Positions 753-35,407 of a DNA stretch of 64,000 nt are shown one piece after another. Position 1 is the first letter of the stretch. Each line of letters starts with the position of its first letter. The notes beneath the pieces were generated by a model. It was given only the letters and a program-made list of their open reading frames with translations, was not told where the DNA came from and made no database searches. Made by a program: the position numbers and the translations under genes. The DNA is from a virus: the IMG/VR virus record IMGVR_UViG_3300038415_000014, positions 96,001 through 160,000 of that record; one strand, given 5' to 3'.

Positions 753-1871
753 TTACAGAGCGTACTTGTTGGAGATCATGTCGTTAACTTCGACAATGAC
801 CCAAGTCTTGCCAGTGGTCGGGACGGTCGGAATGGTTGCCGTCGCGGCAATGAGCGAAGCCGGGACAACAATCGAGGTGTCCGAGATAGTACCACCAGCA
901 GCCAAGATTTGAGCACTAGTGATACGTCGACCACCAAGACCACTGATGATCACGGTTGAGGTATAGAGACCATACCCTAGCAAGCCACCTGAGGCGCCAT
1001 TGATGGTAAGGCTACCTGAGAGGGACAGGCTGGTGATGACCGGAGTCAAGACCGTGTAGAGACTGGTTGATGTCGAGGAGGCATTCACATCTTGAACGAC
1101 CTGGATGGCTTGCCCTGCTGACGCCGGAGGGTGATTGAGGTCACCTCTTGAGTCAGGACAGAAGCTCGAAGACAGATATCCGTGAATAGAACCAGCCAGG
1201 AAGCTCTTCTTGACCGAGTCAGTCTCCACGAAGTGGTAACCGAGCATGTTCTGAAGGGCAACTACCTGAGCGTTGGAGGCGCCAGCTAGCCCTATGATAG
1301 CCTTGATGGCCGTCGCAGAGATGTCTATTGTGGGGACCGGAGTACCCCCGGCGTAACTGGGAACCGTGGCCGTGATCAGAGTAGCTGCAACCTCCACCGC
1401 CACACTGACTGAAATGGTACCATTGAAGTCAGTTGTTGGGGTGACAGCCAGGGTGGCTGTGGTGGAAGCAGCAAATGTAACTGAAGTGGTTCCGGAGATA
1501 GCACCAGTAGTCCCACCACCAAAGGTAGCCGTCACGGTACCAGCAGTACTGCCAGTGATTGTGATGGTTAGGGTGTAGACCTGAAGAGCTACAGCGGCCA
1601 AGGTGTTGGTTAGAGCTGTAGTATTCCCAGTATTGTGGGTAAAGGAGTTGTAAGTCCCTGTCCACCCAGTAGCGGTCCACCCAGTCGACTTGAGGAGCTG
1701 GTTGAGCCCCTGAGCATCCAAGTACTTCTGAATGTTGGTTCGGTTCGGACGAGAGACATACCTGGTCTGTCCCTTAGGAGACTCAGTTGTCGGATTGTTC
1801 TGCGAAGTCGATTCGACGTCCGAAATGAAAAGAGGGTTCTTGATATCGCTTCGGATAACTACTAGAAACAT
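753..1871 (-). CDS. Thr/Ser-rich virion surface protein with C-terminal Ig-like (IPT/TIG-like) domain
   Basis: C-terminal TPVIT...LTING...ITSAQILAAGGTISDTSIVVPASL repeat shared with 2260..3798; similar N-terminal start. Confidence 0.6.
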   Translation of the reverse strand: MFLVVIRSDIKNPLFISDVESTSQNNPTTESPKGQTRYVSRPNRTNIQKYLDAQGLNQLLKSTGWTATGWTGTYNSFTHNTGNTTALTNTLAAVALQVYTLTITITGSTAGTVTATFGGGTTGAISGTTSVTFAASTTATLAVTPTTDFNGTISVSVAVEVAATLITATVPSYAGGTPVPTIDISATAIKAIIGLAGASNAQVVALQNMLGYHFVETDSVKKSFLAGSIHGYLSSSFCPDSRGDLNHPPASAGQAIQVVQDVNASSTSTSLYTVLTPVITSLSLSGSLTINGASGGLLGYGLYTSTVIISGLGGRRITSAQILAAGGTISDTSIVVPASLIAATATIPTVPTTGKTWVIVEVNDMISNKYAL

Positions 1872-1886
1872 TGAGTCCTCCTGAAC

Positions 1887-2252
1887 TTAGACCGGCTGCA
1901 AATGGCCACGAGCTTGATCAATCTTGAGGTAGCGTAGGATGTTGCCGTAAACGGTATAGAAGTCCGCTACCGCTTGGCCAAAGGCAAGCTGATTAGCCAA
2001 GCGAACATACTTTGCACGTCGAAGGATGAACTCAAGATGACGTACACTCTTCAGGTAAAAGGCGGCCCTCTCAAGAGTCTTGAACTCTTCTTCGGAAGCC
2101 TTCACGAGTGAGTAGCGCTGGTTCATATCCTTGACGAGCTTCTGAGTTTGAATAGGTAAAAACAGATGCTTGGGACGCCAAACGTTGTCAATCCTCTGGA
2201 AATCTCCTGTGGTCTCCTGATCCAGGATCTTGATGAGATTTGGCGTCCCCAC
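1887..2252 (-). CDS. Hypothetical protein (121 aa)
   Basis: ORF tightly packed between structural genes. Confidence 0.55.
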   Translation of the reverse strand: MGTPNLIKILDQETTGDFQRIDNVWRPKHLFLPIQTQKLVKDMNQRYSLVKASEEEFKTLERAAFYLKSVRHLEFILRRAKYVRLANQLAFGQAVADFYTVYGNILRYLKIDQARGHLQPV

Positions 2253-2259
2253 TTAGCAC

Positions 2260-3798
2260 TCATGACGAAGTTAGAGCCACAGCGGGAGTTGACGTGTGTG
2301 TGTTCGCTGTAACTGCTGCTGAATCGACGGTTATGGCGATCCCAGACGGAAGGGCCGCAACTGGAATGACAATCGAGGTTGCAGTGAACGTGGTGAAGCT
2401 GGTAGCCGCTACAGTACCCGCATGAGTCCCAGTGATAGCTACTGTGGTCAGATTCGGCAGAACCGAGAGGAACCCTGTACCGGTCAGGGTCAGGATTCCA
2501 GCAGCAAAGACTGCCTTGCTGACCGTAGGAGTTGCTAGGGTTGCAGTCATCGTGTAGGCTGCAGTCGTCATAGCATCAGCTGTAACCGCCACAGTGCTCG
2601 TCCCGATGGTGAGAACCGGTAGTAACGAAGCCGGGACAACAATCGAAGTAGCACCAACGCTTCCACCAGCTGTTGTGATCTGAGAAGAAGTCAGGGTTAC
2701 AGTAGTCGCCCCAACGACGGTCACCGAGGTCACATCCGGAGCCAAGGAGAGGAAATTGGTACCACCGATGGTTAGGTTGCCTGTACCACCGGCATCGACT
2801 ACGCCGGTCGCGATAGTCGGAGTCGCAGAGGTGATCAGAACAGCTGTAGAGGTCGTAGAATCAGCTGTAACCGATACTGTTGTGGTTCCGACTGCAATAG
2901 TCGGGAGCAAACTCGCCGGGATGACAATCGAGGTGTCGGCAAAACTTCCTCCACCTGCAGCAGCAATAGCAGCAGCCGTGAGAACCGTCGATCCTACTGT
3001 CACCGTTGACAGATCCGGAGCCAGCGAAACGAAGTGAGTACCAGTAAGGGTCAAAACTCCGGTACTGACTACAATCACCGCGGTAGTGATGGTCGGAGCC
3101 GCAGAGGTGATCAGAGCCGTAGCTGACTTGTTGTTTGCATTGACCGTCACAGTTGTCGTTCTGACCGCAATGGTTGGAAGTAAACCAACCGGAATGACAA
3201 TCGAGGTTGCAGTAAAAGTTCCTCCTGCCCCTGTGATGGTAGCCGAGGAGAGCGTTGTGGTACCAATCTTCACCGAGGATACATCCGGGGATACCGAGAG
3301 GAATGTAGTACCAGTGATGGTCAGAGCTTCTGGACTAACCACAATAACTGCTGAGCTAATTACCGGAGCTACTGTAAGGGTAGGGTCTATTGTAGTCACG
3401 GTGATGAGGGGATAGGTTGCATGCCCAGCAATTGTACTAGCTAAAGCTGCAATGACTCCATGATCCTGACTCAATAGAACCCTGTCCGAAAGGTTCACAT
3501 CAATGTACCCAGGAACTGTGGTGCTATGAACCCCACCGGGTAGGATCTCCCATAGTGGGATGTAACACTTTTGCTTCGGATAGTTAACTTCAGGGAGAGT
3601 ACTGGAGTCACGCCCTGCAGTACTACCATCTCTTCGATAACTGGCTGGGGCCAACTTACCGCCCGCGACTAGTACAGGGCTGCCATTGACCCTAGCCCTA
3701 ACCAGCCCACATCTTGCAGATTTGTTGGGGAGTCCATCGTCAATATCACTGACGAGGATAGAACCTGAAATAGTCTGGTTATGGATGAGCCTCAGCAT
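2260..3798 (-). CDS. Virion surface protein with four tandem ~90-aa Ig-like repeats
   Basis: Four repeats of P-[TV]-[IV]...L-T-[IL]-[TG]-G-T-x-F-[LV]-S...TSIV[IV]P; nearly uncharged and Thr/Ala/Ser/Val-rich; AGGAG RBS. Confidence 0.7.
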   Translation of the reverse strand: MLRLIHNQTISGSILVSDIDDGLPNKSARCGLVRARVNGSPVLVAGGKLAPASYRRDGSTAGRDSSTLPEVNYPKQKCYIPLWEILPGGVHSTTVPGYIDVNLSDRVLLSQDHGVIAALASTIAGHATYPLITVTTIDPTLTVAPVISSAVIVVSPEALTITGTTFLSVSPDVSSVKIGTTTLSSATITGAGGTFTATSIVIPVGLLPTIAVRTTTVTVNANNKSATALITSAAPTITTAVIVVSTGVLTLTGTHFVSLAPDLSTVTVGSTVLTAAAIAAAGGGSFADTSIVIPASLLPTIAVGTTTVSVTADSTTSTAVLITSATPTIATGVVDAGGTGNLTIGGTNFLSLAPDVTSVTVVGATTVTLTSSQITTAGGSVGATSIVVPASLLPVLTIGTSTVAVTADAMTTAAYTMTATLATPTVSKAVFAAGILTLTGTGFLSVLPNLTTVAITGTHAGTVAATSFTTFTATSIVIPVAALPSGIAITVDSAAVTANTHTSTPAVALTSS

Positions 3799-4092
3799 CT
3801 AACAGCTCCTAGCTAGTGAGTGGACAGGGTTCAATGGGATAAGCCCTATAAGAAGATCAACCGGGGACCAACTCGCCGGAAGGAGTTCAGTCAAGCTGTC
3901 CTTGGTCATACTGCTGTAGGGCATAAAGAAAAACTCAAGCCAACGCTGGGGTGCAATAAGTGACCAGTTTTCACTAGGTCACGGGTCCTCAGATACTCTA
4001 GTGGCCTGTCGGTGTTTGCAGGTCTACGGGCCTATTTAGAAAGATAGCCATCCTTCTAGCTGATAATAGGTGACTTAGGTGTAGGAGTAGCC

Positions 4093-7000
4093 ATGACTAT
4101 TGCTGGCATCAGAGTCCTCACCATCGGAAAGACATTCAGTCTACCCCACAATGTCGCGCATATCGAAGGTACAACCCACCTACTCGAAACAATCGCCACC
4201 TTTAGACCAGATGTCATAGTCACCCCCGAGTATGTACCAGGAGCGCTCACTCAGGCTTGCCACGAGTTGAGGAAACGGTGGATCCATGTTCCGCCTGACG
4301 TGTCCGCTGAGGAGCTTTGTTCACTAGTCGAGGGATGCTACTCGTTCAACCTTTGGACTGAGAATCAATTCGCAAAAGATCACCCGATGGTCTCTGTATA
4401 TACCCCTACTCATGACTCAGGAGACTACCTGCAGGATACATTCCAGTCGCTGCGAGGTCAGACCTATGCCAACTGGGAATGGGTTGTCGTAGATGACCAC
4501 TCCTCAGACAAGACCTGGGCCAGGCTCCAAGAGTTCGCAGCCCAGGATTACCGAGTTCGACCATTCCAAAGTGGTATGCACCTAGGTAAAATAGGTGCAC
4601 TCAAAGACCTGACTACCAGACTCTGCAGGGGAAAGTACCTTGTTGAACTAGACCACGACGATATGCTTACAGAAACAGCTTTGGATGAGGTAAAGAATGC
4701 CTTCGAAGCTCACCCTGATGTTGGTATGGTTTACACAAATAGTGCTTCGTTCTATGAGAACGGGAACCCTCAACGATTCTCAGGATCACCATGGGATGAT
4801 CCCAATAGGTACCGCGAGGTTGAGTACCACGGGCGAAAGTACTTGGAGTGCAGCAACCCGAATATTTATGATCGATTTGGACCACATTTCACTCAGGTAT
4901 TCGGTTGGTTCCTCACAGTAGGCCCCCACCACATCCGGGCGTTTCGAGCAGACACCTTCCGCCAGCTGGGAGGCTACAACCCAGAGCTACCTATCGCGGA
5001 TGACTGGGACCTGTATGCCAGGTTCTTCCTAGAGTCTAAGTGCTTCCACATAGACAAGCTCCTGTACTTGTATCGGTACCGAGATGGTTTTGGCAATGTT
5101 ACCTTCCAACGCCTCCAGTCCATTCAAGACCACTTGGCCCTAGGTCGAAACCACTACGTTGAAAGATTCAGGAGGAAGAACGAGGAGCTACTGGCTAGCC
5201 AAACCCCTGTCTTCGTGGTCAACGACCCAACACCAAAACCTTGCCCAGATGAGAGCCCATCCGCCAGTATCTCATTCGTTGTTCTAGATGCCACTGGCAA
5301 GGATAACGCGGTTGACTGCCTGAAGAGCCTGAAGCTCTATGCCCCTGATGCAGAGATTATCCTAGTCGAGAATGGTTGTGATTCAAAAGCTCGAAAAGAG
5401 GCTCATACTGCTCTGACAAGCTCTCATAACCTTGGGTTCGGAGCTGGATGCAACTTAGGTGCTAGTGCGGCCACCCGTCCGTACTTGTGCTTCATTAATG
5501 ATGATGCAGCCCTCGTGGACGCGGAGACTATCCCAAAGCTCCTAGTTGCTGCCAAGATGAATGCCATTGCTGGGGCCTACTCGGACCGGGCAAAGCCTCC
5601 TCAAGGAGACTGGTCACCTGAGTCAGCACCAAAGGCGGACCAAGTTCTACCCATGGTAGCCGGGCTCTGCATGGTGATGTCCAAGAGCCTGTTTGACTCT
5701 CTCGGAGGGTTTGACCCACGCTTCTTGACCTGGGAGGATGATGACCTCTGTGTCAGGGCTAGACGCCGAGGGGCGAGCTGTGTAGCTGTCGGAGGAACCT
5801 TCGTTCATCACAAGGGTCACCAGACCTTCGAGGCCATGAAGCTCGACCATGTGGCGGTCGAGGACAAGAACCATAGGCTATTCAACCTAAAGCACCCAAA
5901 GATCAAGATCATTGCCATTGCCAAGAATGAGGAGAACTGCATTGTCGAGTTCTTCAAGCAGTTCGAGTCAATCACACACGATTGGTACATGCTCGACACG
6001 GGCTCGACAGACAGAACAATAGAACTGGCTGATTCTATTGGAGTTAGAGTGGAATCTGCTCCGTTCGTGGACTTTGCCACTACCCGCAACCAAGCTTTGA
6101 ATACCTTTGACCCAAAGGAGTGTTGGACTGACTCAGAAGGTAGCTGGGTTATCATGCTCGACCCTGACGAGCGCTTGGACAAGCAAACCATCGCTGCCAT
6201 CCCTGAACTGATCTTCAACAGGCGTATCGTCTCGCAGAGCGCGTTTGATACTTATCTTGCACCCCTGACCGCTGTATACCCAGACGGAAGTAGAAAAGAA
6301 TTTGTAGCCAAGCCATTCCTTTTCAAGAACAACAGCACCTCCAAATGGGTTTTCAAGGTTCATGAGAAGTGGGTAACTGAGGACCATTGCTCGTGTCATG
6401 GTCAATGCGCGATAGTCACCAACGCACTCATCGAGCATCGGATTGAGTTCCACACAGGCAAGCATCGCGATGGGGCCGAAGACCTGTACTCCAGGTTGAT
6501 GTCCGAGGAGCCCTACTTCCAAGACCCAGAGTACAAGGCCAAGATGCGTGAGGATCATCCCATACTCGACTATGATCACACGGATGACCCTCGGATAGCC
6601 AAGATCCAAGCGGGTCCACTGGTCAGCGTGGTAATCCCAACGTACAAGAGAACAGACTTACTAAGAAAAGCCGTACTCTCTGCCCTAACTCAATCGTACA
6701 AGACGCTGGAAGTCATTATTGTTGGGGATCACTGTCCAGAGTTGGATTCGGCTGCGTTCGACGTGAGTCCCTACTCAGAAGAGCCACGAGTCAGGGTCAT
6801 CAATCTGGCAGAGAACCATGGGGCTGGTGGAGCAGAGCCCAGGAACATAGCCATCAACCTAGCTACCGGGCAGTACATCGCCTATCTGGATGATGACAAC
6901 ACCTGGGCGAAAGACCACGTGAGCAACTTGCTGACTACCATCTTGGCGGAGAAGTCTGTCTGGGGTTGGTCGTCGATGATGGTCAATGGGGTCGACCTGA

Positions 7001-8061
7001 ACTTCGATCGGCTTGAGCGTGGTAAGATTGACACCTCGTGTGTCATTCACCACAAGAGCCTAATCCAGAAGCATGGGGTTTGGAAGCCAAGAACCGAGGC
7101 AAACTATTGGCATGACTACGAGTTGTTCTCACGCTGGAGAAAAGAGCCTCAGACGGTAACTGGATACCCGTCAGTCAGCTATAATGCGAGTGCTTCTGGG
7201 CAAGGAGCCTTCCTGGCTAGCCTGACATCTTCAGACCAAGTCACTGACCTACCATTTGAACCTTCTGCTGCGATACCCCCTGAACCAAACCTACTGACCA
7301 TCGGCATCCTGAGTCTGGAATCCCGTGCTGATATGCTCAGCAAGTTGCTACAGGAGCTTGAGCGCCAACAAGCGACTCTACCCTCCTCTAACTCCGTAAA
7401 GATCGTACTTGAGGTGGACAATGGGGATGCCACTGTTGGGGGCAAGCGTCAGAAGATCATAAACGAGTGCAGTACTGAGTACTTGTGTTTTGTAGATGAT
7501 GATGACCTGGTAGAACCAACCTACCTGCAGTCAGTCCTACGGGCTCTCAAGGGCAAACCTGACTGTGTCACATTCAAGGGCATAGTCACCACTGACAACC
7601 ATAACCCCGAGCAGTTCCGCTTGTCCTTGCACTACCCAGCAGGAGCTTGGTCCAAGGATGCTCAGGGGACTCACATGAGGACCCCGAACCATCTGTGTCC
7701 AATGAAGATTGAGATAATGAGGAAAGTGACCTACCGAGACATTACCTCATATGAGGATGCTCTCTGGGGCATGTGGATCCACCCACTCCTGCATAGTCAA
7801 TGCCATATTGACGAGGTCTTGTACCACTACCGATACAGCCCAACCGGGTCAGAAGCAGCCAAGAGAGCACCGAAGCTCATTCCAGGGAAGCTGTTTGAGC
7901 TAGGGGCAGACGGGCTCTTCTATGACTTGAATGGAAAGTCCTACGCCCCCGAGAAGGCTCTTGAGATACTCAACGACCTGATTGGTGCGACCAGACCCCA
8001 GGATGTGACTGCCTTCACACTACGATACCCTGTTCTGTTCAAAGAACTACCAAAGCCCTAG
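4093..8061 (+). CDS. Multidomain glycosyltransferase with five GT2 (GT-A) domains
   Basis: Domain starts near 4387 (VSVYTP..VVVDDHS..ELDHDD), 5269 (ISFVVL..LVENG..FINDDA..WEDDDL), 5902 (IIAIAKNEE..LDTGSTD..MLDPDE), 6619 (VSVVIPTYKR..YLDDDN), 7291 (LTIGILSL..FVDDDD); GTAGGAG RBS. Confidence 0.88.
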   Translation: MTIAGIRVLTIGKTFSLPHNVAHIEGTTHLLETIATFRPDVIVTPEYVPGALTQACHELRKRWIHVPPDVSAEELCSLVEGCYSFNLWTENQFAKDHPMVSVYTPTHDSGDYLQDTFQSLRGQTYANWEWVVVDDHSSDKTWARLQEFAAQDYRVRPFQSGMHLGKIGALKDLTTRLCRGKYLVELDHDDMLTETALDEVKNAFEAHPDVGMVYTNSASFYENGNPQRFSGSPWDDPNRYREVEYHGRKYLECSNPNIYDRFGPHFTQVFGWFLTVGPHHIRAFRADTFRQLGGYNPELPIADDWDLYARFFLESKCFHIDKLLYLYRYRDGFGNVTFQRLQSIQDHLALGRNHYVERFRRKNEELLASQTPVFVVNDPTPKPCPDESPSASISFVVLDATGKDNAVDCLKSLKLYAPDAEIILVENGCDSKARKEAHTALTSSHNLGFGAGCNLGASAATRPYLCFINDDAALVDAETIPKLLVAAKMNAIAGAYSDRAKPPQGDWSPESAPKADQVLPMVAGLCMVMSKSLFDSLGGFDPRFLTWEDDDLCVRARRRGASCVAVGGTFVHHKGHQTFEAMKLDHVAVEDKNHRLFNLKHPKIKIIAIAKNEENCIVEFFKQFESITHDWYMLDTGSTDRTIELADSIGVRVESAPFVDFATTRNQALNTFDPKECWTDSEGSWVIMLDPDERLDKQTIAAIPELIFNRRIVSQSAFDTYLAPLTAVYPDGSRKEFVAKPFLFKNNSTSKWVFKVHEKWVTEDHCSCHGQCAIVTNALIEHRIEFHTGKHRDGAEDLYSRLMSEEPYFQDPEYKAKMREDHPILDYDHTDDPRIAKIQAGPLVSVVIPTYKRTDLLRKAVLSALTQSYKTLEVIIVGDHCPELDSAAFDVSPYSEEPRVRVINLAENHGAGGAEPRNIAINLATGQYIAYLDDDNTWAKDHVSNLLTTILAEKSVWGWSSMMVNGVDLNFDRLERGKIDTSCVIHHKSLIQKHGVWKPRTEANYWHDYELFSRWRKEPQTVTGYPSVSYNASASGQGAFLASLTSSDQVTDLPFEPSAAIPPEPNLLTIGILSLESRADMLSKLLQELERQQATLPSSNSVKIVLEVDNGDATVGGKRQKIINECSTEYLCFVDDDDLVEPTYLQSVLRALKGKPDCVTFKGIVTTDNHNPEQFRLSLHYPAGAWSKDAQGTHMRTPNHLCPMKIEIMRKVTYRDITSYEDALWGMWIHPLLHSQCHIDEVLYHYRYSPTGSEAAKRAPKLIPGKLFELGADGLFYDLNGKSYAPEKALEILNDLIGATRPQDVTAFTLRYPVLFKELPKP

Positions 8062-8732
8062 AAGTCACACCCAAAAAGTACAGAGTTACCTGGTCCAGCA
8101 CCCCCGTACGGAGCTATGGATGCTATTACCTCAGCGGCAAGTGTGAAGTTTGGACTACTGTTCCAACCAGCATTATTAATGCCAGGGGTTGTAGTAGTAG
8201 TTAGACCGCCTGCACCGGCTATGTTGCTTGATGAGGGGTTGGTTAGCATTGAAGTGTAAATAGGTGTCAATGTAGTACCTGGAGTCACACCTACAAAGTC
8301 AAAGAGCCAAGCATTAGCAGCAATAGTGGTGATAGTCGTAGCTATGCTAGCAGCGGAGGCCGCGGTAACTGATTTAGTAACTCCTGGAGCTGTTTGAGCA
8401 GCTCCAAGTAGCGAGATAGAACCCCCTCCAGTATAAGTTGTGGACCCAGACGAAGTTACGATGATGTTATAGGTTCCAGAGGCTGGAAGTTGTGACTCTA
8501 GTGCATAATAGATTGCTACTAGCAGACCAGTGCTACTTAGTACAGAAACAGCTAAGCTTAGGGTTACACTATTATTGTAAGTTACCTGATTCAAGGTTGG
8601 ACCTGAACCAGCCATAACAGTACCAACCAAAAGGATGCGATTGTTGCCAGACGCGCCAATGGTATGACTAAAAGTCACCTGGTTGCTTGTAACAGCAGAA
8701 CCAGCACTAGAATAATCGTAGCTTAGGGCCAA
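8058..8732 (-). CDS. Ser/Thr/Gly-rich probable virion protein
   Basis: Predicted beta-rich, low-charge 224-aa ORF in the fibre operon; TTG start. Confidence 0.55.
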   Translation of the reverse strand: MALSYDYSSAGSAVTSNQVTFSHTIGASGNNRILLVGTVMAGSGPTLNQVTYNNSVTLSLAVSVLSSTGLLVAIYYALESQLPASGTYNIIVTSSGSTTYTGGGSISLLGAAQTAPGVTKSVTAASAASIATTITTIAANAWLFDFVGVTPGTTLTPIYTSMLTNPSSSNIAGAGGLTTTTTPGINNAGWNSSPNFTLAAEVIASIAPYGGAGPGNSVLFGCDF

Positions 8733-8736
8733 AGAA

Positions 8737-9330
8737 TTAACCTATCTTAGCAATGCACAACCTAGCCCGACGACAGTGTACAGTCACGGCCCCGACATTC
8801 TTGTATTGCAATAGTAGGGTTACCGTGGCCCCATCGACCACAGTAAAAGGTACCACTACACTGAATACATGCGGAACCGCTTGTTCCCAAGAGTCTTCAT
8901 ACAAGGCAGAACCATTGTATGATAGCAAAGCATCACTGAAGGTGCTGGCTACGAGTGTATCCAAGAAATGCTCACAATCCAAAGTTCCAAGATAGGTACC
9001 AGCAGGCAAGGGGCCTGCATTGAGGGTTAGTTTAGTCACATAAGCACTACCAGAGGTAGTGGTGTCCGAGGTATCCGTTGCCTGCACCAACGTGGAGCCG
9101 AATACAGCACCTGTATGAGCGGCCACGACCGCATTCAGGGCGGTGATATCAGAAGCCGACAACTCACCAGTAAACGTGAGAACGACTGCGGATCCAGTTA
9201 GCTGAGGTTGGCCTGCTAATGGAACACTCAAACTTGCCGCTACGATCTGAGCAGCTAGAACTGGTGAGTTCACTACGTGATTGGGAAACTCTGTGAGTTG
9301 GTAGGTTTCGGTAGAAGTCAGTGAAGGCAT
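8737..9330 (-). CDS. Probable virion structural protein
   Basis: 197 aa, GGAG RBS, follows the collagen-like gene. Confidence 0.55.
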   Translation of the reverse strand: MPSLTSTETYQLTEFPNHVVNSPVLAAQIVAASLSVPLAGQPQLTGSAVVLTFTGELSASDITALNAVVAAHTGAVFGSTLVQATDTSDTTTSGSAYVTKLTLNAGPLPAGTYLGTLDCEHFLDTLVASTFSDALLSYNGSALYEDSWEQAVPHVFSVVVPFTVVDGATVTLLLQYKNVGAVTVHCRRARLCIAKIG

Positions 9331-9339
9331 GTGATTCTC

Positions 9340-10413
9340 CTAGGGTGCAAATGCTTTAGAGATAACTGCGTAGATCTGGGACCCGTTGTAGTAGATAGCC
9401 ACTATATCCTGAGACCCATTGGGTGTGCTTAAGACTAAATTAGTAGCCTTGCCTCCAGGAGCCCATACAGCTGTTGGCCATGTTAGGATTCGGCTACCTG
9501 TACCGTCTTGTACGACACGCAAAATGTAGTTACCTACCCCGGGGAAGGTGATCCCTGTGATAGTAACGCTCCCTCCGAGCAAGACCATCTGCTTTTGACC
9601 ATTCGAGAAGGAGATGGCAAAGTTAGACGTGACAGCTGTACCACTGTTGATTTGATACTCTGCCGAAAACGCGACATATACCTCACCTGTTGCTGTTGTC
9701 GGGAAGTTGCCTTGGAAGCCTTGGTTGCCTTGCCACCCTTGAGCGCCTTGCCATCCCTGATTGCCTTGGTTACCCTGGTTTCCTTGCCAACCTTGCCAAC
9801 CTTGATTGCCTTGGACGCCCTGGACTCCGGTTGATCCAATAGCGCCCTGGAAGCCTTGGTTGCCTTGATTACCTTGTCGGCCCTGCTGGCCTTGGACGCC
9901 CTGGATCCCTTGGACTCCCTGGGTACCTTGCCATCCTTGGTTGCCTTGATTCCCTTGCCAGCCCTGAGATCCGACAAGGCCCTGGTTGCCTTGCCATCCT
10001 TGAACGCCTTGACCTCCGACGTTCCCTTGGTTGCCCTGCCAGCCCTGGGGGCCCTGCCAACCTTGATTACCTTGGTTGCCTTGCCAGCCCTGAGGGCCCT
10101 GATCCCCCAGCGCACCTTGCCAACCTTGGTTGCCTTGATTACCCTGGTTGCCTTGCCAACCCTGAGGGCCCTGGACTCCCGTCCCCTGCCATCCTTGGTT
10201 GCCTTGGTTGCCTTGATTCCCTTGCCAACCCTGAGCACCCTGAGGGCCCTGGATCCCGGTTCCCTGCCAACCTTGATTACCTTGGTTGCCGGTTGATCCG
10301 ACATCTCCCTGATACCCCTGATTGCCTTGAGTTCCGGTTAATCCGGTGAGACCTTGGTTGCCTTGCCAACCTTGGTTGCCTTGGTCTCCTTTCAGGTTGT
10401 TGACAAGATACAC
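9340..10413 (-). CDS. Collagen-like fibre protein with C-terminal globular domain
   Basis: About 75 Gly-X-Y triplets (GNQ, GWQ, GPQ, GVQ) followed by LRVVQDGTGSRILTW...W...DIVAIYYNG, a common phage fibre C-terminal pattern. Confidence 0.85.
   Translation of the reverse strand: MYLVNNLKGDQGNQGWQGNQGLTGLTGTQGNQGYQGDVGSTGNQGNQGWQGTGIQGPQGAQGWQGNQGNQGNQGWQGTGVQGPQGWQGNQGNQGNQGWQGALGDQGPQGWQGNQGNQGWQGPQGWQGNQGNVGGQGVQGWQGNQGLVGSQGWQGNQGNQGWQGTQGVQGIQGVQGQQGRQGNQGNQGFQGAIGSTGVQGVQGNQGWQGWQGNQGNQGNQGWQGAQGWQGNQGFQGNFPTTATGEVYVAFSAEYQINSGTAVTSNFAISFSNGQKQMVLLGGSVTITGITFPGVGNYILRVVQDGTGSRILTWPTAVWAPGGKATNLVLSTPNGSQDIVAIYYNGSQIYAVISKAFAP
9700..10390 (-). repeat. Imperfect 9-nt tandem repeats encoding G-X-Q
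   Basis: Repeated ccttggttg / ccttgccaa / ccctg units on the + strand. Confidence 0.85.
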
Positions 10414-34368: not shown

Positions 34369-34986
34369 TTACCTCAAACTGTTCTGAGCACTCTCTTCCC
34401 AGTCCTGCATCTCGGTAGCAAACCGATTGAAGAACATGGTCAGGATCTCTGAGGGTAATACTTCTAGGGCTACCTCACGCATTTTCTCTACCCACATCGA
34501 GAAGAGCTTCTGCATCTTTTCGCTGTGGAGGTTGATTGAGTCTTGATCCACCTGTCGAAGTTTGAGTTCAATCTTGGCAATTTCTTCTAGGGCCTTGACC
34601 CTCTTAGTAGAGATCGCTGATGTATCCTTACCGTACTTCTCGGTTTCAATTCTCTGGAATTGAAGGGATGCTGCCTCGCGAGCTACTTCTAGTTTAATCC
34701 GATGTAGCAACGCCATCGTGTCATTGGGGTTGCTTCCTATAAGGCCAACAAGCGGATCAGTATCAATGAACTTCTGTCTTTCGACAGACATCTTGGCGTG
34801 GTATTCAAGATCCAAACGCCCTGGACGTTTTTCAATCTTCTTGGGCCTACCTGGCCCCCTCTTAACGATCCCAGTCTCCTCTTCGAACGGACCCACATCA
34901 TGCAACGGAAGGATAGAAGTAGCAGCTTCTAGTATCTCCTCGTGCGAAAGGTTCTCTACATTCAGGTCTAGTTCTTCATCTGGCAT
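34369..34986 (-). CDS. Probable terminase small subunit
   Basis: Directly upstream of TerL; helical; AT-hook-like KRGPGRPKK. Confidence 0.45.
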   Translation of the reverse strand: MPDEELDLNVENLSHEEILEAATSILPLHDVGPFEEETGIVKRGPGRPKKIEKRPGRLDLEYHAKMSVERQKFIDTDPLVGLIGSNPNDTMALLHRIKLEVAREAASLQFQRIETEKYGKDTSAISTKRVKALEEIAKIELKLRQVDQDSINLHSEKMQKLFSMWVEKMREVALEVLPSEILTMFFNRFATEMQDWEESAQNSLR

Positions 34987-34999
34987 AGAAGTACCCTAT

Positions 35000-35407
35000 T
35001 TATTGGACCGACTTGGCCCCGCCGCCGCCATCAGTTCTAACGAGGTATTGGGACAGGTTGTGAACAACATCGTATCCCTTATCCTTTGGGACCTGAGTTC
35101 GTATGGCCTTACTCATATCCTTCCCGGTCTCAGCTACGTTCAAAACCCCAATCTGGTCTGGCTTGGGGTGAAAGACATCCTCTGGTCGAATGTCCTTACG
35201 TTGAGGCTTGACCGTATCATCACTACCTGGGTCCATTGCCTCCCCGTGCTCACGAGCGAGCTGCCGGTCAATACCCTTGAGACGGTTGACAGGTTCAGTC
35301 ATCTCTTTGACATCTCTGCGCATACCAGGGGCTTGGTCAGCTCGAATAAAACGAGCAGCCACCCGTAGGGTCAGGGTATCAATGGTGGTTTGGTCTTGGC
35401 TGGTCAT
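35000..35407 (-). CDS. Hypothetical, probable head protein
   Basis: N-terminal LRVAARFIRA motif. Confidence 0.45.
   Translation of the reverse strand: MTSQDQTTIDTLTLRVAARFIRADQAPGMRRDVKEMTEPVNRLKGIDRQLAREHGEAMDPGSDDTVKPQRKDIRPEDVFHPKPDQIGVLNVAETGKDMSKAIRTQVPKDKGYDVVHNLSQYLVRTDGGGGAKSVQ

Follow-up and report, generated by a model that had tools for sequence, protein, structure and literature searches.

What can a single phage polypeptide with five glycosyltransferase (GT) domains build, and on which molecule? The question is raised by one gene in a 64,000-nucleotide stretch of viral DNA (the window), which corresponds to bases 96,001-160,000 of the 183.5-kb IMG/VR virus record IMGVR_UViG_3300038415_000014 (G000). 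The gene occupies positions 4093-8061 of the plus strand, stop codon included, as an open reading frame (ORF) with a 100% self-match in G000, and encodes P0001, a five-module GT2 glycosyltransferase of 1322 amino acids (aa). P0001 probably glycosylates the phage's own fibre proteins in the cytoplasm, using sugar donors of the host; the acceptor, the sugars and the order of their addition are what we infer from the resemblances and gene linkage described below.

The window contains phage genes, including those for the portal, the large terminase and a clamp loader, and is read from the minus strand nearly throughout. Because a close relative (G001) is complete at 512,571 bp, with direct terminal repeats and a CheckV completeness of 100%, G000 represents part of an uncultured phage whose genome runs to about half a megabase; its own CheckV completeness is 38%. 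In a preliminary description made from the letters of the window, the GT gene was presented as the only substantial one on the plus strand. Among ORFs of at least 150 aa this holds apart from 34718-35368, the sole other plus-strand ORF that is neither contained in a longer ORF of the minus strand nor crosses one.

Five GT-A domains in one chain

P0001 consists of a conserved N-terminal domain of 97 aa, five divergent GT-A (GT2) domains and a short tail. The parts are listed below with their Pfam scores, main motifs and, for the modelled regions, the predicted local distance difference test score (pLDDT).

4093-4383, plus strand: N domain (aa 1-97), a small alpha/beta domain with a strand-helix pattern, pLDDT 87-95
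4384-5202, plus strand: D1, GT-A domain (aa 98-370), PF00535 at 80 bits, DHDD at 187-190, SpsA/K4CP/WrtF-like
5203-5250, plus strand: disordered D1-D2 linker (aa 371-386), pLDDT <50
5251-5886, plus strand: D2, GT-A domain (aa 387-598), PF00535 at 29.9 bits, N469-D-D471, EDDD at 548-551
5887-6597, plus strand: D3, GT-A domain (aa 599-835), DPDER at 690-694, VHEK at 756-759, GmaR/ThuS-like
6598-7257, plus strand: D4, GT-A domain (aa 836-1055), PF00535 at 77.9 bits, DDD at 933-935, DTS at 980-982, SpsA/WrtF/PglI-like
7258-7887, plus strand: D5, movable GT-A module (aa 1056-1265), PF00535 at 29.2 bits, DDDD at 1135-1138
7888-8058, plus strand: C-terminal tail (aa 1266-1322), helices at model residues 688-718

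When the whole protein was searched with PF00535, five separate stretches were matched, with a total of 219 bits. Scanned singly (parts 98-385, 386-598, 599-835, 836-1055 and 1056-1322), D1, D2, D4 and D5 scored 80.4, 29.9, 77.9 and 29.2 bits, all above the gathering cut-off of 23.3 bits; D3 alone reached 19.8 bits and stayed under it. D3 is nevertheless a GT-A domain, because four lines of evidence agree: it matches phrog_13126 'beta-1,4-glycosyltransferase' (3.8e-14); it matches the solved N-terminal domain of GmaR (E 2.8e-5) in an alignment that spans the DxDE and the later HE; its model is confident, with block-mean pLDDT of 96-98 in the first ~70 residues (some later loops 60-79) and a classic strand-helix alternation in which the DPD motif directly follows the fourth strand; and it superposes on ThuS. 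Pfam stretches, models and superpositions thus bear out the five intact GT-A domains of the preliminary description, and the count of folds does not fall below five. The N domain has no Pfam match. It always precedes D1, single-GT relatives included, and tblastn matches to relatives begin at P0001 residues 14-60. The C-terminal tail is limited to the three closest homologues.

The DXD-type motifs noted earlier in each domain are real and conserved. Residues D187-H188-D189-D190, N469/D471 (the D2 motif, NxD at 469-471, with Asn instead of the first Asp), D690/D692-E693-R694 and D933-D934-D935 are invariant across an alignment of 83 sequences, and so are the acceptor-side acidic residues D303-D304, D549, H757-E758 and D980. 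In the 12 homologues that carry D5, the residues D1135, D1136, D1138 and E1221-D1222 are likewise invariant. Invariance of both metal-binding and acceptor-side acidic residues therefore points to selection on all five active sites. The five domains share 18-30% identity with one another, which rules out a recent internal duplication as their source. In a Kyte-Doolittle scan with 20-residue windows the highest mean was 1.44, and P0001 is predicted to be a soluble protein without a transmembrane segment.

AlphaFold yielded two half-models with mean pLDDT of 89.8 and 87.8, and D1-D4 were individually resolved as GT-A folds in the lists of superpositions. The best superpositions of D1 and D4 are with K4CP, WrtF, SpsA and TarP (Z 21-24): D1 gave Z 24.4 with K4CP and Z 22 with WrtF, D4 gave Z 23.8 with WrtF and Z 23.3 with SpsA. 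All four enzymes are sugar-to-sugar or sugar-to-polyol transferases. D2 (model 388-600) superposes on the catalytic domain of ppGalNAc-T2 with Z 20.9, a root-mean-square deviation (rmsd) of 2.8, 205 aligned residues and 21-22% identity. The fold matches listed for D2 are all polypeptide N-acetylgalactosamine (GalNAc) transferases (ppGalNAc-T2/T4/PGANT9A) or B4GALNT1, with Z 19-21 and 20-22% identity, and D2 also matches PF02709 at 23.0 bits (cut-off 23, E 6.3e-5). It resembles GT27 without being a member of it, as the lectin domain is absent. D3 superposes on ThuS, a peptide glycosyltransferase, with Z 17.7 and rmsd 3.1 over 206 residues; GmaR, with which it aligns through DxDE and HE, is the flagellin O-GlcNAc (N-acetylglucosamine) transferase of Listeria (PMC3150276, PMC9638930). 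P0001 differs from the GT27 enzymes and from GmaR/ThuS in having no lectin, TPR or anti-repressor domain (a Pfam scan with E up to 1 found no TPR family in it), and the likeness is one of fold and motif. D5 matches phrog_14775 (4.6e-47), and its tblastn identity with annotated Mycobacterium- and Gordonia-phage glycosyltransferases is 28-33%. Such likenesses suggest a role on protein for D2 and/or D3 and glycan extension by the remaining modules.

A multi-module family beside collagen-like genes

By sequence, P0001 belongs to a family whose members are mostly viral; the core N-D1-D2-D3-D4 is fixed, and the fifth module changes its place. Homologues are 41-85% identical to it; a megablast of deposited phages gave no match. 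A word-indexed search returned 285 proteins, dozens of which are 1000-1700 aa long and align along most of P0001, many on contigs of 160-512 kb. Architectures were mapped for 120 of the 285: the core occurs as such in 62, a D5-like module is inserted after D1 in 38, and D5 is C-terminal, as here, in 13. A few homologues have a methyltransferase or PF13712 between D1 and D2. The insertion site of these extra modules coincides with the sole disordered linker of the model, residues 371-386. Directly after the 1335-aa GT ORF of a 76%-identical relative lies a 423-aa ORF that also matches P0001 (L002:14008-15279); it may be a separately encoded extra module or a frameshifted extension.

When 1.84 billion representatives (50% identity) were searched with a profile of the four-module core, ~20 gave a full-core match. 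The same search returned unrelated, very large proteins (2000-4400 aa) that contain as many as 11 GT2 stretches, such as the metagenomic proteins P0189, P0177, P0157 and P0195 (2800-4400 aa, 8-11 separate GT2-like stretches). Among 185,579 species genomes, a multi-module homologue was present on just three contigs of metagenome-assembled genomes (MAGs), whose labels conflict (Promethearchaeota, Vampirovibrionaceae, Casimicrobiaceae) and in all three of which collagen runs adjoin the gene. These contigs are probably from huge phages and mis-binned into cellular MAGs. In the corresponding loci, L089 (WJMJ01000101.1), L090 (JBGUGD010000004.1) and L091, the multi-module GT stands by collagen-like runs; the contigs labelled 'Promethearchaeota archaeon' and 'Vampirovibrionaceae bacterium' are 121 kb and 152 kb long. 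The preliminary description knew of no described five-GT2 fusion in a phage. We indeed found no paper describing the multi-module GT2 family, yet the fusion is not unique: dozens of metagenomic homologues have four or five modules, and one protein of the family has been deposited under the name 'Glyco_tranf_GTA_type domain containing protein [uncultured Caudovirales phage]'.

Collagen is the sole neighbour family common to 15 multi-module loci. It lies 0.8-6.7 kb from the GT gene at the locus of P0001 in the window (WIN) and in L015, L006, L008, L016, L017, L019, L020, L021/22 and L089, upstream or downstream, on either strand, and sometimes encodes 1700-2200 aa. The linkage is also seen within single genomes. 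In complete G001 the seven PF01391 matches all belong to a single ORF, located ~1 kb from the GT gene, and the five PF00535 matches all belong to the GT gene itself, which makes this enzyme the sole GT2/GT1-type transferase detected there by PF00535 and PF00534 searches. The 183 kb of G000 contain a single collagen gene, 1.3 kb from the GT gene. PF01391 was present in 18 of 18 further viral records searched whole. Runs of at least eight G-X-Y triplets were found in the flanks of 45 viral loci out of 85 and of 12 top genome loci out of 20, but at a single one of the 56 loci that encode weak GT2 relatives (Fisher 4e-13); after clustering of the enzymes at 50% identity, 12 of 20 clusters had such runs (p 5e-8). 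The distances are mostly <3 kb, within flanks extending to 10 kb.

Most relatives carry the GT gene on the same strand as the collagen genes; the inverted orientation stressed in the preliminary description is true of this locus and peculiar to the small clade of P0001, and does not extend to the family. The fibres encoded beside the enzymes (e.g. L019:17103-23687, L020:2815-8979, L076:3-3650) mostly contain little proline and have Gln at 40-95% of the Y positions, and several exceed 1600 aa; those of L068, L076-L080 and L086 are nearly pure Gly-Ser-Ser.

More distant relatives have collagen-like neighbours too. In T4-like phages, single-GT relatives of N+D1 (29-38% identity) directly follow collagen-like genes, in a cassette of one to four collagen-like genes (Lys/Thr/Gln at Y), DUF6445, a GT2 of 610-626 aa and a PF13640 2-oxoglutarate-Fe(II) oxygenase (L009:1-4773, L011:1-11536, L012). 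DUF6445 is present in 19 loci and the oxygenase in 16; for each of the two the median distance to the GT is ~350 bp. A flavin amine-oxidase-like protein (PF01593/PF13450) is encoded at L044:3296-4483 and in 11 further loci, ~1.3 kb from a GT of the N+D1 type; T4-like loci with this protein also carry a second GT2. In chromosomes of Chloroflexia/Thermomicrobiales (contigs of 0.4-3.6 Mb), a short collagen-like gene is divergently paired with a two-domain D1+D4-like GT2 of 538 aa, after which comes a D3-like ORF (L100:9019-12749, L110:9121-12757, L104:9395-12724); in L104 the enzymes are fused into a protein of 1109 aa. The arrangement resembles a cellular counterpart of the phage system. Since D1+D4-like and D3-like enzymes pair with the collagen gene of Chloroflexia, the phage protein seems to have arisen by fusion of modules found with collagen-like genes in cells as well.

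The T4-like cassettes, for which animal LH3/COLGALT1 and mimivirus L230 are analogues, share with P0001 an N+D1-type GT encoded beside collagen-like genes; they differ by DUF6445, PF13640 oxygenases and Lys-rich triplets, which point to hydroxylysine-type chemistry. This type of collagen glycosylation was rejected for the present phage, as the oxygenase families searched for, PF13640 and PF20043, were not found in G000/G001 and the triplets have no Lys. A PF13640 search of a genome can miss: it was blank for G004, the record of L012, whereas the near-identical L011:10946-11536 matches at E 6.7e-14. The gene may be missing from the record of L012 or may have been passed over by the initial filter, and the PF13640 absences call for caution.

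Gene neighbourhood in the window

The genes around the GT gene that bear on its acceptor are as follows.

753-1871, minus strand: Thr-rich protein of 372 aa, T 16%
1887-2252, minus strand: ORF of 121 aa in the Thr-rich operon
2260-3798, minus strand: Thr-rich protein of 512 aa, T 19%, S 10%, with four ~92-aa repeats visible by eye
3799-4092: intergenic region of 294 bp between the divergent Thr-rich operon and the GT gene
8058-9330, minus strand: two small Thr/Ser-rich ORFs (8737-9330 and 8058-8732) that follow the collagen gene within its operon
9340-10413, minus strand: collagen-like fibre protein of 357 aa, PF01391 E 1.2e-34, matches to tail-fibre PHROGs, globular C-terminal domain

The placement of the GT gene between Thr/Ser-rich proteins and a collagen-like gene, as first described, agrees with composition and with the PF01391 match. 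The collagen-like protein has 74 G-X-Y triplets, with mostly Asn/Trp at X and 84% Gln and 5% Thr at Y; Lys is absent. In the fibres of many relatives Thr makes up 20-40% of Y. ORF 8058-8732 contains 14% T and 14% S. Neither it nor ORF 8737-9330 has a Pfam/PHROG match or a tblastn match in an 82%-identical relative (L004); it is possible that the two are variable distal parts of the fibre and candidate acceptors. On the other side, the operon 753-3798 runs away from the GT gene, and its two Thr-rich proteins are similar to each other. The 512-aa protein has no Pfam match and no usable protein Atlas match, and a protein self-BLAST did not report its ~92-aa repeats. The Ig-repeat fold that the preliminary description gave to the Thr-rich proteins drew no support from these searches. 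Pfam and PHROG scans covered ten neighbouring ORFs, eight of which had no match.

Co-occurrence divides these neighbours. The Thr-rich genes are syntenic in the closest relatives alone (L002, L004/L015); the collagen-like gene is kept throughout the family and in relatives outside it. The initial proposal that virion surface proteins are glycosylated is the best-supported reading, and the Thr-rich proteins put forward as partners (L002 and L015 only, in the co-occurrence check) are candidate acceptors in P0001's own clade only. Within that clade the Thr/Ser-rich neighbours are equally plausible acceptors as the collagen-like fibre.

The GT gene and ORF 8058-8732 converge at 8058-8061, where the TAG of the former (8059-8061) overlaps the minus-strand TAG of the latter (8058-8060) in a CTAG palindrome, leaving no space for a terminator between them. 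The 294-bp intergenic region presumably holds the promoters of both the GT gene and the Thr-rich operon; a sigma-70 and terminator scan gave nothing beyond shuffled expectation and found no sigma-70-like site in 3799-4092. The GC content of 4093-8061 (0.516-0.518) matches that of the flanks (0.50-0.52), and on this composition recent foreign acquisition of the gene was rejected.

A proposed glycan for the phage's own fibres, and rival readings

In the mechanism that we propose, the soluble, cytoplasmic P0001 with its five active sites would draw on nucleotide sugars made by the host and build a short hetero-oligosaccharide on phage fibre proteins, before or during virion assembly. The likeliest acceptors would be the collagen-like fibre 9340-10413 and the adjoining Thr/Ser-rich proteins. 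The first sugar may be placed on the protein by D2, which is polypeptide-GalNAc-transferase-like, and/or by the GmaR/ThuS-like D3; the SpsA/WrtF/K4CP-like D1, D4 and D5 may then extend it. A conserved core glycan would come from the four-module core N-D1-D2-D3-D4, and a lineage-specific decoration from the movable fifth module or, in other phages, from the methyltransferase. The phage may benefit through fibre stability, protection, shielding or adhesion. Linked genes for nucleotide sugars or for DNA hydroxymethylation, a point raised by the preliminary description, were sought with PF01370, PF00483 and PF00303 and turned up in neither G000 nor G001. Because PF01370, PF00483 and PF00534 have no match in G000 or in complete G001, P0001 would have to use nucleotide sugars of the host.

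Several observations weigh against fibre glycosylation. The best sequence scores of P0001 are with the polysaccharide enzymes TuaG, WcaA, PglI, EpsE and K4CP, and the structural matches are to whole GT-A folds, which do not prove the type of acceptor. With Gly-Asn/Trp-Gln repeats and Thr at 5% of Y, an acceptor of the SgtA type (described below) is scarce in the fibre. In L018, a multi-module relative, the collagen gene is 51 kb off, and every second single-GT relative lacks one within 10 kb. The 56 control loci are cellular, not viral, a weakness that is partly offset by the within-genome results for G000, G001 and G006. Finally, linkage can arise simply because both genes share a variable fibre module.

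The main rival, and the usual reading in the literature, is that the enzyme remodels the host envelope, extending or altering a lipopolysaccharide (LPS) O-chain, capsule, teichoic acid or S-layer glycan, e.g. as a barrier to superinfection. Such a role has been published for genes of this kind in pelagimyophages and huge phages (PMC7029224; 10.64898/2026.10.24.761521), and it fits both the best NCBIfam/PDB sequence matches, which are polysaccharide enzymes (those named above and PmHS2), and the reliance on host pools of a phage without its own sugar-nucleotide genes. We consider it unlikely all the same. P0001 has no membrane segment, its gene is located within the structural module, and a collagen-like fibre gene is the sole neighbour that is conserved, both in phages and in Chloroflexia chromosomes; D2 and D3 resemble protein-directed enzymes, and no priming transferase, flippase or polymerase was found among the neighbours scanned with Pfam and PHROGs, the flanks being partly annotated and the whole genome not screened. 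Still less probable is a polymerase, in which pairs of modules would act like K4CP, PmHS2 or LARGE1 and make a repeating polysaccharide, either free or primed on the fibre in the manner of a proteoglycan. These enzymes have tandem GT-A domains in one chain and are the best overall structural matches of P0001: the top Foldseek matches of both half-models are the two-domain polymerases PmHS2 (E 2e-18), K4CP (E 3e-16) and LARGE1. However, such matches reflect two adjacent GT-A domains, and the rmsd of the pairs is 18-24 A; the known enzymes use two modules to make repeating polymers, whereas the four or five divergent modules here (18-30% identity) suit a defined hetero-oligosaccharide better than a disaccharide repeat, and no export machinery is nearby.

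That the modules glycosylate hydroxymethylated bases of phage DNA deserves very little credence. Glycosylation of DNA is well established in phages (Pyle et al. 2024, cited by PMC12619734), and D4 shows a weak match to the TET-associated glycosyltransferase PF20691 (E 0.0096), but at 16.3 bits it is far under the cut-off of 27.5, and the GT gene stands among structural, not replication, genes. P0001 is unlikely to glycosylate DNA because a ThyA-family hydroxymethylase (PF00303) was not found in G000 or complete G001 and the D4 match is so far below its cut-off; a search of both records for PF12851 (Tet/JBP), run without a positive control, gave no match either. Both alternatives that the preliminary description had kept beside virion glycosylation are thus weakened, the host surface by the collagen linkage and the missing anchor, DNA by the missing PF00303.

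Glycosylation of the phage's own fibres would have precedents, and both virus-encoded multi-domain glycosyltransferases and the pairing of a GT2 enzyme with a collagen-like fibre are already known. The BclA glycosylation loci of Bacillus show a similar pairing of GT and collagen-like genes. SgtA, a GT-A enzyme encoded beside bclA3, is a cytoplasmic enzyme that uses a UDP-sugar and a divalent metal; it places the first sugar, O-GlcNAc, on Thr of the collagen repeats of the C. difficile fibre protein BclA3 (PMC7157674). Compared by description, the two systems share a GT-A gene adjoining a collagen-like fibre gene (1.3 kb away for P0001, and kept across relatives); SgtA has one GT domain plus TPR and targets Gly-X-Thr, whereas P0001 has five GT domains, faces Gly-X-Gln and belongs to a phage. 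In chlorovirus-type multi-domain enzymes the likeness lies in the architecture: A111/114R of PBCV-1 is a viral protein with three GT domains for capsid glycans, and A064R combines two GT domains with a methyltransferase, which some P0001 homologues also bear; these soluble proteins add one sugar per domain to a virion-protein glycan and do not need host machinery (PMC7826918). PBCV-1 is, again by description, a eukaryotic virus with N-linked glycans on its major capsid protein and three modules, in contrast to a bacteriophage with four or five GT2 modules and a likely fibre target. Among phages, the mycobacteriophage enzymes Che8 gp110 and Corndog gp38, and Myrna, are described in PMC12363180 as glycosylating capsid and tail tube. 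They too are phage-encoded and act on virion proteins, and D5 resembles actinophage glycosyltransferases; they differ in that each is a single-domain enzyme with its own gene and that capsid and tail-tube subunits are modified at their C-termini, and the actinophage proteins matched by D5 (Omega, LittleE, Sixama) are different from those with demonstrated activity. In the literature, bench demonstrations of phage virion glycosylation were found for a few mycobacteriophages only.

A broader version of fibre glycosylation can be advanced tentatively, and we hold it to be possible rather than probable. Huge phages, and some bacteria with unfused modules, may have a 'glyco-collagen' system, in which one assembly-line enzyme starts and completes a defined oligosaccharide on proline-free Gly-X-Gln fibres, perhaps starting on a residue that is not known to carry sugars in collagens (Asn, Gln or sparse Thr), and in which swaps of the fifth module, at the C-terminus or at the flexible D1-D2 linker, diversify the glycan. 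If so, the sugar coats of fibres would be an evolvable layer of host recognition or protection.

Glycosyltransferases encoded in the fibre region of phages are usually dismissed as modifiers of host LPS. The strong linkage to collagen needs explaining even if the fibre is not what P0001 glycosylates, and the system is compact: a soluble, single-gene enzyme beside the sole collagen-like fibre gene of complete G001, testable with two or three genes. If the proposal is true, the acceptor chemistry of Gly-X-Gln bacterial-type collagens would be defined, a natural multi-enzyme scaffold with exchangeable modules would become available for glyco-engineering, and huge phages would be seen to sugar-coat their own fibres.

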